A stretch of DNA of 64,000 nt from Candidatus Daviesbacteria bacterium (GTDB lineage: Bacteria; Patescibacteriota; Microgenomatia; Daviesbacterales; UBA10151). How positions within the stretch are numbered: position 1 is the stretch's first letter; every line of letters begins with the position of its first letter. Location of the stretch: positions 4,466 through 68,465 of the forward strand of contig JAUSHE010000014.1 in the NCBI GenBank assembly GCA_030648435.1, in the 5' to 3' direction. This document shows positions 476 to 45,635 of this stretch, piece by piece. Position numbers and translations under genes: made by a program. Under the pieces are notes generated by a model. It worked only from the letters and a program-made list of their open reading frames with translations, was not told the origin of the DNA and ran no database searches.

Positions 476-1201
476 ATGAAAGGCGTTGTATTAGCAGGAG
501 GTTTAGGAACAAGGCTTTATCCTTTAACAAAGGTTACCAATAAACATCTTTTGCCGGTTTATAATAAACCGATGATTTTTTATCCGATTGAAACATTAGT
601 TAAGGCAGGTATTACCGATATTATGGTAGTAACCGGCGGTCCCCACTCCGGTCATTTTTTATCAATCTTAAAAAACGGAGAAGAACTTGGCATTAAACAT
701 CTGGAATATGCTTATCAGGAAAAAGAAGGAGGAATTGCGGATGCCCTATCATTAGCAAGGGAATTTGCGGAAGGTGATAGTGTGACGGTAATTTTGGGAG
801 ATAATACCTCGGATGCGGATATTGCCGAATCGGTTCGGAATTTCAAAGAAGGAGCGCTGATATTCTTAAAAGAAGTTTCAGACCCGGAACGCTTTGGCAT
901 TGCGACTTTCGATCCAGCAGATCCTTCAAAGATCATAAAAATTACAGAGAAACCACAGAATCCGGATTCAAAAATGGCTGTCACAGGAGTTTATATCTAC
1001 GATAAACAGGTTTTTGATTTTATAGATCAAATTAACCCTTCCGGAAGAGGAGAATTAGAAATTACGGATGTGAATAATAAATATGTGGAAAAAGGACAGC
1101 TTAAATGGAGCGAGCTTAAAGGTTATTGGTGGGATGCAGGTACTTTTGATACTTTACTTCAGGCTAATAACTATTGGGCAAAAAAGGCGAAGACAAAATG
1201 A
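476..1201 (+). CDS. rmlA: Glucose-1-phosphate thymidylyltransferase, short-form sugar nucleotidyltransferase (RmlA-like).
   Basis: N-terminal GxGTRLxPLT motif (MKGVVLAGGLGTRLYPLT). It is the first of four coupled rml genes. At 241 aa it is shorter than the canonical ~290 aa RmlA. Confidence 0.75.
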   Translation: MKGVVLAGGLGTRLYPLTKVTNKHLLPVYNKPMIFYPIETLVKAGITDIMVVTGGPHSGHFLSILKNGEELGIKHLEYAYQEKEGGIADALSLAREFAEGDSVTVILGDNTSDADIAESVRNFKEGALIFLKEVSDPERFGIATFDPADPSKIIKITEKPQNPDSKMAVTGVYIYDKQVFDFIDQINPSGRGELEITDVNNKYVEKGQLKWSELKGYWWDAGTFDTLLQANNYWAKKAKTK

Positions 1202-2199
1202 AGATTTTGGTTACTGGCGGAGCCGGATTCATTGGCTCAAATTTTATTCATTACTGGATCAAGACCCATCCGGAAGATGAAATAATAAATTTAGACGTCC
1301 TAACTTATGCCGGTCATCCGGAAAGCCTTAAAGATTTGGAGGGAAACCAAAATTATAAGTTTATAAAAGGTGATATTACTGATGCGGAAGTAGTTAAGCA
1401 AGCCATGGAGGGAGTAGATACGGTGGTTCATTATGCTGCAGAATCACATGTTGACCGTTCAATTGTTGATCCATTAGCTTTTGTCAAAACAAATGTTTTA
1501 GGTACAGCAGTGCTGTTAAACAGCGCCCTTGACGGCAAGATTAAAAGATTTCACCACATCTCTTCAGATGAAGTTTATGGGGAATTGGGACTACAAGATG
1601 CACCGTTCAACGAAAACACACCTTACAGTCCGAGGACTCCTTATTCCGCCTCAAAAGCAGGTTCAGACCATTTGGTGAGGGCTTATTTTGAAACATATGG
1701 ATTACCGGTGACGATCAGTAATTGCGCCAATAATTACGGCCCTTTCCATGATCCGGAAAAATTGATTCCGAGATTTATTACCAATCTCTTGCAAGGAGAG
1801 AAGGTGCCTTTAATGGGGAAGGGAGAAAATATCCGCGAATGGCTGCATGTTGAGGATCACGCTGAGGCGGTTGATTTTATTCTGCAAAAAGGGCAACTGG
1901 GAGAAACTTATTTGATTGAGGGCGAGGAAAAAACAAATCTGGATATAACCAAAAAGCTGCTTGAGATTTTAGGGCTTGATGAGTCTGTGATTAAATTTGT
2001 TGAGCATAGATTAGGTCATGATTTCCGCTATGCAATAAACGGAGATAAACTGAAAGCTTTAGGGTGGATCAGAAAACATAATTTAACGGAAGATCTGCCG
2101 AAAGTTGTTGAATGGTATAAACAAAACGAGTGGTGGTGGAAGCCTCTGAAACAAGGCAGGCCCAACATTGACCGATTAGCACAAAAATCATATGGATAA
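1198..2199 (+). CDS. rmlB: dTDP-glucose 4,6-dehydratase.
   Basis: N-terminal Rossmann motif [14 protein letters not shown] and a YSASKAGSD (YxxxK) active-site motif, about 334 aa. I moved the start to the ATG at 1198, which overlaps the rmlA stop as ATGA, instead of the track's 1174. Confidence 0.9.
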   Translation: MKILVTGGAGFIGSNFIHYWIKTHPEDEIINLDVLTYAGHPESLKDLEGNQNYKFIKGDITDAEVVKQAMEGVDTVVHYAAESHVDRSIVDPLAFVKTNVLGTAVLLNSALDGKIKRFHHISSDEVYGELGLQDAPFNENTPYSPRTPYSASKAGSDHLVRAYFETYGLPVTISNCANNYGPFHDPEKLIPRFITNLLQGEKVPLMGKGENIREWLHVEDHAEAVDFILQKGQLGETYLIEGEEKTNLDITKKLLEILGLDESVIKFVEHRLGHDFRYAINGDKLKALGWIRKHNLTEDLPKVVEWYKQNEWWWKPLKQGRPNIDRLAQKSYG

Positions 2200-2740
2200 A
2201 TATATTAAAACTACATCAATTGCAGGATTATTAATACTGGAGTGGCCGACTTTTGAGGATGAACGGGGATTTTTTAAAGAAGTATTTCATCTTGATGAAT
2301 TGCAGCAAGCGCTGGGATATGAATTTAAACCTGTTCAATGGAATCATTCAAAATCAAAACCCGGTGTGCTGCGGGGTCAGCACGCCGAAAATTGGAATAA
2401 GCTAATTTATCCGGTAACCGGAGAGTTGTTTGCCAGTGTAGTTGATATTAGGGTTGATTCTGTAACTTTTGGTAAGTATGAAACTTTTACATTTAACAAT
2501 GAAAATAGATGTGCCCTTTTTATTCCAAAAGGTATGGCTAATTCTTTTTGTGTTACAGGTAAGGAAGATGTCAATTATCTTTATTTAGTTGACGCTTATT
2601 GGGACGGTTCAGATACTAAGGCAATTGCCTGGGATGATCCTGATATAAATATAAAATGGCCTATTGAAAATCCGATAATTTCGGAGAGGGACAAAAATAA
2701 TCCCAAGTTAAGAGAGCTTCTTCCGGAGAAATTTAAATGA
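2192..2740 (+). CDS. rmlC: dTDP-4-dehydrorhamnose 3,5-epimerase (cupin).
   Basis: 182 aa, cupin-sized, with a GVLRGQHAE core. It sits between rmlB and rmlD and overlaps both neighbours. Confidence 0.8.
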   Translation: MDKYIKTTSIAGLLILEWPTFEDERGFFKEVFHLDELQQALGYEFKPVQWNHSKSKPGVLRGQHAENWNKLIYPVTGELFASVVDIRVDSVTFGKYETFTFNNENRCALFIPKGMANSFCVTGKEDVNYLYLVDAYWDGSDTKAIAWDDPDINIKWPIENPIISERDKNNPKLRELLPEKFK

Positions 2741-43215: not shown

Positions 43216-43984
43216 GATTTCAATAGTCATCCCGTCTTTTAATAAAGCTTCTTATATGGAAGCCACTTTGTGTTCAATAGTAGATCAAAACTATCCGAAC
43301 CTAGAAGTTATTATTCAGGATGGGGGATCCGGCGATGGGACGGTTGAAATAATAAAAAAATATGCAAATAAGTACCCTGGGATATTTGCATGGGAATCGA
43401 AAAAAGATAAAGGACAAGTTGATGCGATAAATAAAGGACTCAATAAAGCAACGGGCGAAATACTTAATTTTATTAATGCGGATGATATATACAAAAAAGA
43501 TGCTTTGATAGAAATAGGTAGATATTTTAAAGATAATTCCGATGCGTTATGGATGACAGGTTACGGGGATATCACAGATAAAGACGGTAAAGTTATTTTA
43601 CGTTTAATTACAATTTATAAAAATTTTTTACTGAATTTAAATAAATACTCTTTGCTTTTAATTGTTAATTTTATTACTCAGCCGTCAACTTTTTTAAGCA
43701 GAAAAGCTTATAGGCAATTCGGTCCTTTTACTGGTACCAGAGATTATGTCATGGAGTATGATTTATGGTTAAAACTAGGGAAAATTCAGATGCCGAAGGT
43801 TTTCCAAAAAACTTTATCCAGTTTTAGATTGACAAATGATAATATTTCCTCAACTTCAGCAAAAGAATTGCTAAAAATTGACAATAAAATTACTACAAAA
43901 TATACAAGCAATGGTTTGCTTTTAGCTTTACATAAGCTACACAATCTTGGTAGAATCTTTCTATTGAATTTCATGCAATCATGA
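43184..43984 (+). CDS. GT2 glycosyltransferase.
   Basis: [42 protein letters not shown]. 266 aa. Confidence 0.7.
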
Positions 43985-44931
43985 GCAAATTCTGGAAAGA
44001 CAAAAAAATTCTAGTTACCGGTGGAGCAGGTTTTTTGGGGACACATCTGGTGCGTAAATTAATGGAAGCGGAGGCCTCCAAAGAAGATATTTTTATCCCG
44101 CGATCTGAAGACTCAGATTTAAGAATTCTTGAGAATTGTACTAAGGTAGTAGCGGATATGGATATTGTGATTCATTTAGCAGGTAATGTGGGAGGCATTG
44201 GTTATAACAGAGAAAAACCCGGAGAGCTTTTCTATGACAATATCATGATGGGTGTGCAGTTAATGGAGGAAGCAAGAAAAGCCGGAGTTAAAAAATTTGT
44301 AGGACTGGGAACAATTTGCCAGTACCCCAAATATACTCCTGTGCCTTTTAAAGAAGAAGATTTATGGAATGGTTATCCTGAGGAAACTAATGCACCGTAT
44401 GGTTTGGCAAAAAAAATGCTACTTGTGCAGGCTCAAGCATACAGACAACAATATGGTTTTAATGCAATTCATTTAATGCCGGTCAATTTGTATGGCCCCG
44501 GGGATAATTTTGATCCGCAGTCTAGTCATGTAATACCGTCGCTTATTAAAAAATTTATGGATGCCAAGAAACAGGGGGATAAAACAGTTACAGTCTGGGG
44601 CAGCGGTAAACCCACAAGAGAATTTCTATATGTAGATGACGCGGCAGAAGCTATTATTTTAGCAACTGAGAAATATAACAGGCCCGAGCCGGTAAATATT
44701 GGTTCGTCTTTCGAAATCTCTATTAAAGAGTTGTCTGAATTAATTCAGAAAATAATTGGATTTACCGGAAGATTAATATGGGATAAGACTAAGCCAGATG
44801 GGCAACCACGGAGAAAATTAGATACCTCAAAAGCAGAAAAAGAGTTTGGATTTAAATCAACAACTAATTTTGAAGTGGGCCTAGAGAGAACAATTCAGTG
44901 GTATTATGATCAACATAAGGAATTGAGATGA
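43981..44931 (+). CDS. fcl: GDP-L-fucose synthase (GDP-4-keto-6-deoxymannose 3,5-epimerase/4-reductase).
   Basis: [36 protein letters not shown] and NLYGPGDNF motifs. 316 aa. It completes GDP-fucose synthesis together with the gmd gene at 3649. Confidence 0.8.
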
Positions 44932-45635
44932 AGGACGGCATCTCTTTAATTATTCCTGTATTAAACGAAGAAAAAACTATAGCCACAATTATTAAGAAAT
45001 GTGCCTCTCAGTCATTGGTAAGTCAATTAGTTATTGTAAATGATGGATCAACAGATCAGACGCGGAGTATCTTGAATAAAATCAGAAAAAAAAACATCAG
45101 AAATCCTCTTATTACCATACTGAGCCATGAATCAAATATGGGAAAAGGAGCAGCTATCAAAACTGGATTAACAGAAGTATTGGGTAAATATGTTATGGTG
45201 CAAGATGCTGATTTGGAATACTCTCCCGACGAAATTAAGTATTTATTTAATGAGGCACAGAAAACAAAGGATGGCATTGTTTTTGGGACAAGATCTCATC
45301 ATAGAAAAAAAGGATATATATTAGCTCAATTGGGGAACTGGTATTTAAATCTAATGTTTAATTTTTTGTTTGGATATCATTTATCTGACAGCTATACTTG
45401 TTATAAACTCATACCGAAGATTATATGGCAAAAGATGGATCTACAATCTAACGGATTTGAGATCGATGCGGAACTGGTTGCTAAAATGGGCATGCAGGGG
45501 TATCAAATCAAAGAGGTTCCTATCACGTATTTCCCACGTAAATATGCGGAAGGTAAAAAAATTAAATGGTTAGATCTTTTTAAGGCAACCGGAGTGGCAA
45601 TAAAAGTGCGTTTTTTGGCAAGTAAATTTACTTAA
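44928..45635 (+). CDS. GT2 polyprenyl-phosphate glycosyltransferase (Dpm1/ArnC-like).
   Basis: [21 protein letters not shown] and VQDADLEY motifs. 235 aa. Confidence 0.75.

Follow-up and report, generated by a model that had tools for sequence, protein, structure and literature searches.

The window analysed here, 64,000 nucleotides of contig JAUSHE010000014.1 from a Candidatus Daviesbacteria assembly (GCA_030648435.1), carries a run of glycosylation genes with 19 membrane glycosyltransferases (GTs) of the GT-C fold within 52 kb. Daviesbacteria are members of the Microgenomates, a group of the candidate phyla radiation (CPR). We interpret the run as a conserved envelope-glycan locus of Daviesbacteria and related Microgenomates that encodes a greatly expanded multi-component transmembrane glycosylation system, and assign this interpretation, with the mechanism outlined below, a probability of roughly 0.55. 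Positions refer to the window, and its genes are numbered g01 to g55.

According to the proposed mechanism, five GT2 enzymes would charge polyprenyl phosphate with sugars at the inner face of the membrane. The g32/g33 pair would, in addition, prime an oligosaccharide on undecaprenyl monophosphate, which soluble GT2 and GT4 enzymes would extend and a Wzx flippase would flip. Two GT-Cs resembling the catalytic subunit of oligosaccharyltransferases (OSTs), g17 and g18, would then transfer or polymerise the flipped unit outside the membrane, with the deacetylase-like domain of g17 acting on an N-acetyl sugar of the donor or the polymer. The other approximately 16 GT-Cs, including two tandem paralogue sets of four members each, would add single sugars in various linkages from flipped polyprenyl-phosphate sugars. 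The product would be a highly branched heteropolymer containing rhamnose and fucose, its core conserved and its outer part differing between strains; its acceptor could be a wall-linked polysaccharide, a lipoglycan or a protein.

Within this scheme, there is good support for extracytoplasmic assembly from lipid-phosphate sugars. The second route via an oligosaccharide on undecaprenyl monophosphate is indicated by analogy, because a GacI/GacJ-type pair and soluble GTs co-occur with Wzx and with two OST-like GT-Cs adjoining it. In Lactococcus, WpsA/WpsB make GlcNAc-P-C55 and soluble GTs elongate it to the whole repeat unit, both in vitro (PMC10821137). In the model of the same authors, Wzx-type flipping is followed by polymerisation by the GT-C WpsH and ligation by the GT-C WpsJ. 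TagO, the phosphoglycosyltransferase of the rhamnan part, is an enzyme apart (PMC10821137). By analogy, the Daviesbacteria block would hold every element of this logic, and with monophosphate priming the locus would do without a phosphoglycosyltransferase. A structural glycan of the wall or membrane is favoured over an optional decoration, since gene order is kept at 45–55% protein identity.

GT-C membrane glycosyltransferases

Eighteen GT-Cs lie in the interval 476–45635 (17 firm, g07 probable), and g42 beyond it brings the number in the window to 19, in about seven sequence families. An earlier reading of the letters alone (the sequence-only reading) had proposed some 19 such proteins from at least six families, which agrees well with these numbers. 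Its assignment of the polytopic open reading frames (ORFs) to the GT-C fold also withstood a check by profile search: 11 pass Pfam cut-offs, and the others are tied to the fold by paralogy, homologues, structure or profiles. That these ORFs are transporters was rejected, as only the Wzx protein g16 is transporter-like. The GT-C genes are as follows.

5840–6970, minus strand: g07, probable small GT-C of 376 aa with about nine transmembrane (TM) helices
6994–9150, plus strand: g08, fusion of a synthase-like GT2 (residues 1–225) with a GT-C (about 230–718); Pfam GT2 106, PMT_2 46, PMT 36 bits
9891–11414, plus strand: g10, GT-C; PMT_2 46 bits (cut-off 26), loop-1 motif ADE
11417–16419, plus strand: g11, g12 and g13, tandem family A GT-Cs of PTPS_related type, loop-1 motif DD
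16416–17675, plus strand: g14 (record Q7R77_01570), GT87-like GT-C without Pfam match of its own, loop-1 motif HPD
17680–18822, plus strand: g15, short family A GT-C; PTPS_related 33 bits (cut-off 26), 29–31% identical to g11–g13
20297–23692, plus strand: g17, signal peptide, deacetylase/glycoside-hydrolase-like (DUF3863) barrel and beta-sandwich (about 25–455), family B GT-C (about 480–1131)
23694–25721, plus strand: g18 (annotated as hypothetical protein Q7R77_01590), family B GT-C of 675 aa with OST-catalytic-subunit architecture
25708–27387, plus strand: g19, family C GT-C and paralogue of g25–g27; PMT 46, PMT_2 40 bits, loop-1 motif DE
30160–32878, plus strand: g23 and g24, divergent PMT_2-type GT-Cs; PMT_2 19.5 bits (below cut-off) and 44 bits, respectively
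32882–37710, plus strand: g25, g26 and g27, tandem family C GT-Cs (PMT/PMT_2), all passing Pfam, mutual identity 31–34%
39535–41007, plus strand: g30, GT-C; PMT_2 36 bits
41008–42192, plus strand: g31, PIG-V/GT76-like GT-C; Mannosyl_trans2 64 bits (cut-off 22)
50071–51924, plus strand: g42, the 19th GT-C; PMT_2 34 bits

Pfam cut-offs for GT-C models are reached within the interval by g08, g10, g12, g15, g19, g24–g27, g30 and g31, and outside it by g42. The models behind the passing matches of the interval are PMT_2/PMT (C-terminal part of g08, g10, g19, g24–g27, g30), PTPS_related (g12, g15) and Mannosyl_trans2/PIG-V (g31); PTPS_related is taken by us to belong to the GT-C clan, in agreement with weak PMT_2/STT3 co-matches. 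Two further proteins, g13 and g23, match GT-C profiles under the cut-off, and five (g07, g11, g14, g17, g18) have no match. All-against-all blastp groups g11, g12, g13 and g15 into family A, the C-terminal part of g17 and g18 into family B, and g19, g25, g26 and g27 into family C; the C-terminal part of g08, g10, g23, g24, g30 and g42 form a loose PMT_2 set. In this way, g11, which matches no profile, is joined to g12 (PTPS_related 49 bits, passing) at 36% identity (E 4e-117), and g12 to g13 (PTPS_related 21 and PMT_2 22 bits, failing) at 33%. The family A profile also matches the GT-C domain of g08 (E 2e-6), and g23 is linked to g10 by blastp (30% over 140 aa, E 6e-8) and to the family C profile (E 8e-4).

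Each candidate has 7–14 hydrophobic segments, and an acidic motif can be read in the first loop in 17 of the 19, with g15 and g42 uncertain. The motif is DE in g08, g10, g19, g23 (SDE), g25–g27 and g30, DD in g11–g13, EE in g24 (LEE), the D of xFDGxxY in g07 and g31, HPD in g14 and HDG in g17 and g18. Its invariance was looked at in three alignments (A1, A2, A3), among which family C keeps D29-E30 throughout; the sidedness of the loop is predicted from charge distribution only.

Two members owe their place to their homologues. For g14, PDB sequence searches gave nothing meaningful and NCBIfam gave nothing, and local family profiles linked neither g14 nor family B to other GT-C families. Its homologues (49–71% identity) carry PF09594 (GT87) and PF05007 (PIG-M) and bear the NCBI names GT87 or DUF2029; g14 thereby ranks among the best-conserved membrane GTs encoded here. 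The minus-strand g07 likewise has no Pfam, NCBIfam or PDB sequence match of its own. Its family of 322 representatives holds an invariant D50 in RNxDGPxY after the first TM helix, 54 members yielded eight PMT_2 matches below cut-off and two GT87 matches, and hhalign relates it to family C with 75% probability (E 2.4e-5). It is probably a GT-C and the least certain of the set. A role as WecA/MraY-type initiator or as Wzy was rejected, as no such matches were obtained and GT-C-type motifs are present. Some homologues of g07 carry a C-terminal PA14 (carbohydrate-binding) domain (among P0291, P0305, P0332, P0354, P0323 and P0338), and others correspond to the C-terminal half of proteins of ~680 aa whose N-terminal half has no Pfam match.

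The OST-like proteins g17 and g18

Sequence searches with g18 gave nothing meaningful in the PDB and only a 23-bit match to Chlor_Arch_YYY in NCBIfam, and profile–profile comparison of family B with family C gave a probability of 3%. The GT-C fold of family B is thus known from a structure model only, without sequence-level links to other families. This AlphaFold model, built from 47 homologues, is of high confidence by its own scores (predicted local distance difference test, pLDDT, 88.7; pTM 0.91), and a Foldseek search returned only GT-C enzymes, with STT3, AglB, PglB and DPY19 at E of about 1e-8. In the model, the GT-C membrane domain is followed by a C-terminal globular domain of STT3/AglB type. 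A regular-expression search for WWDxG, the OST motif, or its relaxed variants found it in none of the 47 family B sequences, and family B as a true OST was rejected on this ground.

The GT-C part of g17 is 30% identical to g18 and is preceded by a secreted, soluble domain that sits behind a typical Sec signal peptide (MKKLLLLFLFLLSFSFVPKVFA/Q). NCBIfam returned no match for g17. The AlphaFold2 model of residues 1–500 (pLDDT 92.5) has the DUF3863 'glycoside hydrolase/deacetylase' 3lm3 as its best Foldseek match (E 7e-15, template-modelling score 0.66), followed by CE4 peptidoglycan/polysaccharide deacetylases and GH57, with HP0310, PdaC and ArnD at E 1e-7 to 1e-4. Judged by this model, the domain has a deacetylase-type (beta/alpha) barrel fold and is a putative deacetylase or hydrolase, so that g17 may join sugar de-N-acetylation (or trimming) with GT-C transfer on one polypeptide. 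Its layout resembles the separate ArnC, ArnD and ArnT steps, or PpgS together with a deacetylase and Rv3779. The soluble domain also occurs stand-alone in many Microgenomates proteins of 500–680 aa. Both genes directly follow Wzx g16, an arrangement kept in all four additional contigs examined around g18.

Candidate lipid-phosphate sugar synthases, Wzx and soluble glycosyltransferases

The genes proposed to supply donors and lipid-linked oligosaccharide, apart from g08, are the following.

4662–5843, plus strand: g06, synthase of the archaeal dolichyl-phosphate mannose synthase (DPMS) type, GT2 with its own GtrA/DPMS TM domain; Pfam Glycos_transf_2 82, GtrA_DPMS_TM 70 bits
9147–9878, plus strand: g09, soluble GT2 of GtrB/ArnC type, candidate synthase; NCBIfam PgfS 79, ArnC 70 bits
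18828–20300, plus strand: g16, Wzx/MOP-family flippase; Polysacc_synt_3 157, Polysacc_synt 81 bits
27395, 28279 and 29082 (starts) to 30173, plus strand: g20 and g21, GT2, and g22, GT4, all soluble by Pfam assignment and topology
37707 and 38461 (starts) to 39528, plus strand: g28, GT2, and g29, GT4, soluble (Pfam)
from 42203, plus strand: g32, GT2 of 219 aa forming a pair with g33; NCBIfam PpgS 126, AglJ 106 bits
42859–43215, plus strand: g33, DUF2304 protein of 118 aa with three hydrophobic segments; Pfam 73 bits
43184–43984, plus strand: g34, soluble TuaG-like GT2; Pfam GT2 102, NCBIfam TuaG 83 bits
44928–45635, plus strand: g36, soluble GT2 of ArnC/AglJ type, fifth candidate synthase; NCBIfam AglJ 102, ArnC 59 bits

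The five synthase-like GT2 enzymes that the sequence-only reading had placed at 4662, 6994, 9147, 42203 and 44928 are found at exactly these positions, with GtrB, ArnC or DPMS as nearest relatives. The closest solved relative of g06 is the Pyrococcus DPMS 5mlz (E 3.6e-25), aligned over residues 4–349 including the TM part, and g32 aligns over its full length with the same structure (E 1e-15). For g09, the best solved relatives are GtrB 5ekp (1.2e-17), ArnC (5e-17) and DPMS (1.7e-12), and for g36 it is ArnC (E 8e-12). The N-terminal domain of g08 scores best with PgaC in NCBIfam (70 bits), followed by ArnC and PgfS (65 each), and AglJ also scores; of 17 species genomes, 15 match the fusion over residues 1–718 at 64–74% identity, and in the remaining two the match stops at a contig end.

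Membrane attachment would be provided by GtrA_DPMS_TM in g06, by the fused GT-C in g08 and by the adjacent DUF2304 protein g33 for g32. The DUF2304 proteins GacJ, WpsB and Rv3632 activate the GlcNAc- or GalNAc-P-polyprenol synthases GacI, WpsA and PpgS, respectively (10.1101/180810; PMC10821137). The genes g32 and g33 share an ATGA overlap and are followed by the GT2 g34, and probably encode a synthase–activator pair of the GacI/GacJ, WpsA/WpsB or PpgS/Rv3632 type; g34 is a candidate for the first GT that elongates the lipid-linked sugar. For g09 and g36, the assignment as synthases is weakest, as both have no TM segment and no obvious partner.

Six soluble GTs are encoded in total, four GT2 (27395, 28279, 37707, 43184) and two GT4 (29082, 38461); g20–g22 show no or one weak TM helix. 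Taken together with rmlABCD, gmd, fcl and the single Wzx, these six complete a gene content on which Pfam and NCBIfam agree with the sequence-only reading.

Gene packing and missing components

The interval 476–45635 holds 36 ORFs, 35 on the plus strand and one (g07, 5840–6970) on the minus strand. This strand pattern had been recognised from the letters, with about 38 genes instead of 36. Among 33 same-strand junctions, 21 are overlaps (nine of ATGA and three of TAATG type) and 12 are gaps of 0–18 nt, and the summed ORF lengths equal the interval, i. e. a coding density of ~100%. The frequent ATGA overlaps had been noted before, and the earlier description of junctions as overlaps of 1–32 nt or gaps of at most 18 nt holds in essence; exceptions are the divergent g07/g08 starts, 23 nt apart, and the g12/g13 overlap of 44 nt, which is 29 nt if the ATG at 14776 is used in place of the longest-ORF TTG start at 14761. 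Likewise, the 28-nt g01/g02 overlap derives from the longest-ORF TTG at 1174, whereas with the ATG at 1198, g02 would overlap rmlA by ATGA. For both g02 and g13, the TTG is probably not the true start.

Position 45635, where the sequence-only reading had ended the locus, is the end of the same-strand run only: sugar genes go on, on both strands, to 63487, and the glycan island spans at least 63.5 kb. Contigs of close relatives reach 1.02–1.15 Mb, in keeping with a genome of ~1 Mb, of which the locus would take up about 63 kb or roughly 6%. The small-genome host that had been anticipated is consistent with a CPR bacterium whose relatives have contigs of 1.0–1.15 Mb. Across the whole window, G+C is even at 30–39%, and recent horizontal acquisition was rejected on this ground and on that of conservation across the lineage. 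A consensus scan of 1–20000 found 73 promoter-like sites (69.8 expected) and 25 terminator-like sites (16.2 ± 4.4 expected), the latter all within coding sequence; these counts speak neither for nor against a single transcript. The packing of the genes resembles that of an operon, and co-transcription of the block is plausible.

Neither an initiating phosphoglycosyltransferase nor Wzy, Wzz, a ligase or an ABC exporter was found within the 64 kb, as the sequence-only reading had stated for the first four. In 56 window ORFs of at least 100 aa, Glycos_transf_4 (WecA/MraY, PF00953), Bac_transf (WbaP, PF02397), Wzz (PF02706) and LCP had no match at E<=0.01, and Wzy_C and O_anti_polymase gave only matches of 16–18 bits, far below cut-offs, in proteins that score better as GT-C. 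In six relatives, ten ORFs were sampled from the ~3.5 kb that precede rmlA; among them are a long-form RmlA, a CAP-domain protein, a TsaD fragment, a release factor and metalloprotease-like, NYN and asparaginase domains, and none is a phosphoglycosyltransferase. The window is also devoid of phosphatidylinositol-mannoside, decaprenyl-phosphate-arabinose and galactan genes and of a lipid-anchor acyltransferase, and no candidate target protein, S-layer or pilin gene was found in it.

No tRNA genes were found in the window. Its upstream edge (1–475) contains the C-terminal end of an ORF that leaves the window (listed part 32–325, one hydrophobic segment) and a hydrophobic ORF of 50 aa (322–474); at this position, relatives have a gene for a secreted CAP-domain protein of ~290 aa.

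Conservation among relatives

A search with the g08 fusion identified 17 species-level genomes, most of them titled Daviesbacteria. Complete loci follow the order rmlA-B-C-D, gmd, g06, g07 (minus strand), g08, g09, g10, family A (two to four copies), g14 and g15 in some only, Wzx and g17, at 55–90% identity. In 16 of the 17 loci rmlABCD is kept, and in 16 g07 lies on the minus strand, the 17th being a 1.8-kb contig. The middle of the block is preserved in four further contigs (~48–76% identity), including Wzx at the same position and the GT2-GT2-GT4 triplet g20–g22. A search with g31 gave 40 related metagenome loci, 23 of them on contigs of at least 9 kb. The run from family C (in varying number) through g28 and g29 to g31 is kept in about 20 of these 23 longer contigs, and the fcl-g32-g33-g34 run, whole or in part, in nine of them at 45–75% identity. 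The comparison of gene order with related metagenome-assembled genomes that had been suggested as a check thus shows the order to be kept in the 17 species genomes and in metagenome contigs.

Other parts vary. Family A differs in copy number between relatives, g30 is absent from the syntenic g31 contigs (23 of at least 9 kb) and is specific to this lineage, and in a relative with a 1.02-Mb contig, g31 is followed instead by a second Wzx, GT2/GT4 enzymes, methyltransferases and an AftD-like GT-C. The locus accordingly divides into a core that is conserved and a distal module that varies.

At the position of rmlA, six relatives (L008, L010, L013, L015, L016 and L018, at about 2850–4120 in each) have a long-form RmlA of 360 aa with a left-handed beta-helix, which is only 35–37% identical to the 241-aa RmlA of the window. 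Several records that carry the locus at 64–74% identity are titled 'uncultured Gammaproteobacteria', and one is titled Berkelbacteria (L003, L004, L009, L013, L015, L016, L019 and P0068 taken together); their gene content is that of Daviesbacteria/Microgenomates, and the titles are likely placeholders or wrong labels.

Sugar-nucleotide genes and the distal module

The sugar-nucleotide genes of the main run and all further genes up to 63487, apart from g42, are listed below.

476–1201, plus strand: g01, rmlA; Pfam NTP_transferase 194 bits, NCBIfam rmlA 234 bits (under the cut-off of 361)
1174–2199, plus strand: g02, rmlB-like 4,6-dehydratase; Pfam GDP_Man_Dehyd/Epimerase 244/225 bits
2192–2740, plus strand: g03, rmlC; Pfam dTDP_sugar_isom 159 bits
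2737–3630, plus strand: g04, rmlD; Pfam RmlD_sub_bind 206 bits
3649–4662, plus strand: g05, GDP-mannose 4,6-dehydratase (Gmd); Pfam GDP_Man_Dehyd 309 bits, NCBIfam gmd 302 bits (cut-off 415)
43981–44931, plus strand: g35, GDP-L-fucose synthase-like (Fcl); NCBIfam GDPFucSynFcl 294 bits (cut-off 500)
45632–49218, minus strand: g37–g40, GFO/IDH/MocA oxidoreductase, 4,6-dehydratase-like short-chain dehydrogenase/reductase (SDR), sugar C-methyltransferase and cupin/FdtA-like isomerase (Pfam, NCBIfam)
49305–50021, plus strand: g41, protein of 238 aa without known family
51897–61011, minus strand: g43–g52, DUF5672, a protein without recognised function, methyltransferase, RmlD-like, RmlC-like, second C-methyltransferase, epimerase, glucose-1-phosphate cytidylyltransferase (G1P_cyt_trans 262 bits), GT2 and tetratricopeptide-repeat protein (Pfam)
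61043–63487, plus strand: g53–g55, GFO/IDH/MocA oxidoreductase, PseF-like cytidylyltransferase (PseF 136 bits, cut-off 206) and SDR (Pfam)

Pathways to dTDP-rhamnose and GDP-fucose are encoded, as are, further downstream, those to C-methylated CDP-/dTDP-deoxysugars. The predicted role of g01–g04 is the supply of dTDP-L-rhamnose, and g37–g40 are probably a gene cassette that yields a branched deoxysugar. Sugar C-methyltransferase cassettes occur twice, as paralogues (47574–48827 and 55975–57189), with g39 and g48 being 42% identical by blastp, and the stretch from 45.6 to 63.5 kb also holds a second rmlC/rmlD pair. It is probably a strain-variable outer module. Two of its proteins, g41 and g44 (52697–53716, 339 aa), match neither Pfam families nor PDB sequences; lying among sugar genes, they may represent GTs or sugar-modifying enzymes that escape recognition.

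Weighing the interpretation

Several points weigh against the multi-component system as set out above. Family B has no WWDxG, so that en-bloc transfer by g17 and g18 is drawn by analogy only. Every NCBIfam match lies far under its equivalog cut-off, all sugar specificities are predictions from sequence, and g09 and g36 might simply elongate chains, as ordinary GTs, instead of being polyprenyl-phosphate-sugar synthases. Up to six lipid-linked species would have to be served by one Wzx and one GtrA-type domain. With g07 in opposite orientation, the block must comprise two or more transcription units. It may also contribute to two or more glycans, and a phosphoglycosyltransferase, an LCP ligase or Wzy could be encoded elsewhere in the genome, beyond the 64 kb.

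A more specific version of our interpretation is put forward tentatively. The locus could make an envelope heteropolysaccharide of Microgenomates, possibly essential and similar in function to arabinogalactan or lipoarabinomannan (LAM), that is primed on undecaprenyl monophosphate without a phosphoglycosyltransferase, polymerised or ligated by a hitherto unannotated OST-like GT-C family with one member fused to a secreted deacetylase, and then completed, almost wholly outside the cell, by some 16 further GT-Cs.

Protein glycosylation as the main function is a doubtful alternative. PMT-like O-glycosylation and OST-like N- or O-glycosylation by g17/g18 would then modify S-layer, pilin or secreted proteins, with GT-Cs extending the glycans as does AglS in Haloferax. 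Family C indeed passes the Pfam PMT cut-off and keeps its DE motif, the fold of family B is nearest to STT3, AglB and PglB and includes the AglB-like C-terminal domain, and g32 and g36 reach ~100 bits on the archaeal AglJ model. However, PMT_2/PMT matches are commonplace among bacterial GT-Cs working on lipids and polysaccharides, WWDxG is missing from all 47 family B members, the 64 kb contain no target-protein, S-layer or pilin gene, and 19 GT-Cs go far beyond the need of any known protein-glycosylation system. The role in a glycosylated S-layer or pilus for host contact that the sequence-only reading had suggested finds no support in the sequence.

We also regard it as unlikely that the island consists of several independent glycosylation modules for different glycoconjugates, packed together by genome compactness. 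Such modularity could explain why g07 breaks the strand run, why units of synthase and GT-C (g08–g10), GacI/J and GT2 (g32–g34) and Wzx and OST-like GT-C (g16–g18) recur, and why relatives gain or lose family A copies, g14/g15 and g30 or have a second Wzx module. Yet the order of the modules is itself kept at 45–90% identity in dozens of genomes, and junctions overlap across module borders.

The sequence-only reading had favoured a glycan made from polyprenyl-phosphate monosaccharides only. While assembly outside the membrane is retained here, its exclusivity is not, in view of the six soluble GTs, Wzx, the OST-like GT-Cs and the GacI/J pair. A pure extracytoplasmic build-up, sugar by sugar on a membrane-lipid primer as in lipomannan (LM)/LAM synthesis and without a lipid-linked oligosaccharide, is rather improbable. 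It would account for the 19 GT-Cs with GT87-like and PIG-V-like members, for the five candidate synthases and for the absence of a phosphoglycosyltransferase, Wzy and Wzz from the window. Against it stand the six soluble Leloir GTs and Wzx in the syntenic core, the GacI/J-type pair followed by a GT2 and the OST-like GT-Cs directly after Wzx, and the window has no phosphatidylinositol-mannoside or decaprenyl-phosphate-arabinose enzymes and no lipid-anchor acyltransferase. As the monophosphate pathway of Lactococcus illustrates, absence of a phosphoglycosyltransferase does not exclude a lipid-linked-oligosaccharide route and should not be taken as absence of one.

Finally, an ordinary Wzx/Wzy- or ABC-type polysaccharide, with initiator, polymerase and ligase encoded elsewhere and the GT-Cs serving for Gtr-type side-chain decoration, is very unlikely despite the presence of Wzx and soluble GTs, an initiator (GacO/TagO) that lies outside the locus also in streptococci and lactococci (PMC10821137) and a distal part that varies like an O-antigen locus, for Wzy, Wzz and an ABC exporter are absent from the 64 kb and the GT-Cs exceed the Leloir GTs 3:1 and are the most conserved genes (g14 55–69%, g08 64–74%), which fits backbone synthesis and not optional decoration.

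Comparison with known systems

The multi-component system proposed here has its closest counterparts in the lactococcal rhamnose-rich cell-wall polysaccharide (cwps) and streptococcal GacI/J/K/L four-component loci, with which it shares rmlABCD at the head of the locus, a GT2 paired with a DUF2304 protein and a Wzx-type flippase (PMC10821137; 10.1101/180810). Further likenesses are the soluble GTs that elongate on undecaprenyl monophosphate and the proposed outer polymerisation and ligation by GT-Cs in the lactococcal pathway, here predicted from the genes, and a division into conserved and variable parts, with TagO/GacO outside the locus in lactococci and streptococci (PMC10821137). In contrast, two GT-Cs (WpsH, WpsJ) are named for the lactococcal pathway and one (GacL) for the streptococcal one (PMC10821137), as compared to 19 in Daviesbacteria. 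The Daviesbacteria locus further differs in having no rhamnan ABC exporter, five synthases instead of one, synthase–GT-C and deacetylase–GT-C fusions, and a CPR host.

The synthesis of LM, LAM and arabinogalactan in mycobacteria and corynebacteria (Ppm1, PimE, MptA/B/C, Emb, AftA–D, PpgS/Rv3632/Rv3779) likewise employs many GT-Cs that use polyprenyl-phosphate sugars outside the membrane, yielding an envelope heteropolysaccharide that is essential and conserved. GT87-like and AftD-like members (the latter in a relative) and a PpgS/Rv3632-type pair are shared as well. Mycobacterial envelope-glycan genes are scattered, with no more than about five GT-Cs known from one region. In Daviesbacteria, the sugars would be rhamnose, fucose and C-methyl deoxysugars, and the window lacks phosphatidylinositol-mannoside, decaprenyl-phosphate-arabinose and galactan genes. 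The Haloferax Agl pathway, too, starts on a lipid monophosphate, employs AglJ-like GT2s and a flippase resembling Wzx, and includes a GT-C that acts late. With STT3, AglB and PglB, family B shares the GT-C fold and the AglB-like C-terminal domain, but identity is only 11–14% and WWDxG is absent.

Three-component systems (GtrA/GtrB/GtrC; Citrobacter GT136) consist of the same unit of synthase, flippase and GT-C, sometimes with an auxiliary sugar-modifying enzyme (PMC11127046). Whereas these add one side-chain sugar to the polymer of another pathway, the unit is multiplied in Daviesbacteria and apparently constitutes the main pathway. The multi-component principle would thereby be extended from side-chain decoration to apparent synthesis of a whole polymer.

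Every component of the locus is of a known kind (GT-C, GtrB-class GT2, GacJ, Wzx, CE4-like), and so is the operating principle, which combines multi-component transmembrane glycosylation with mycobacterial-type assembly outside the membrane (PMC11127046; PMC10821137). New are the accumulation of 19 GT-Cs in 52 kb of a ~1-Mb genome and its conservation throughout the lineage, two GT-C families that are unannotated in the libraries searched, and the synthase–GT-C and deacetylase–GT-C fusions. We know of no locus with as many GT-Cs, and our search of the literature on glycosyltransferases of CPR, Patescibacteria, Microgenomates and Daviesbacteria found no description of such a locus. The envelope chemistry of CPR/Patescibacteria is almost unknown, yet it mediates host attachment and phage recognition. 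A 6% share of the genome and a gene order kept across deep divergence point to a major, structurally conserved surface glycan. If the product is indeed a wall glycan primed on a monophosphate and built mostly by GT-Cs, it would represent a wall-building logic so far undescribed in bacteria of any phylum and would define the surface with which these episymbionts meet hosts and phages.

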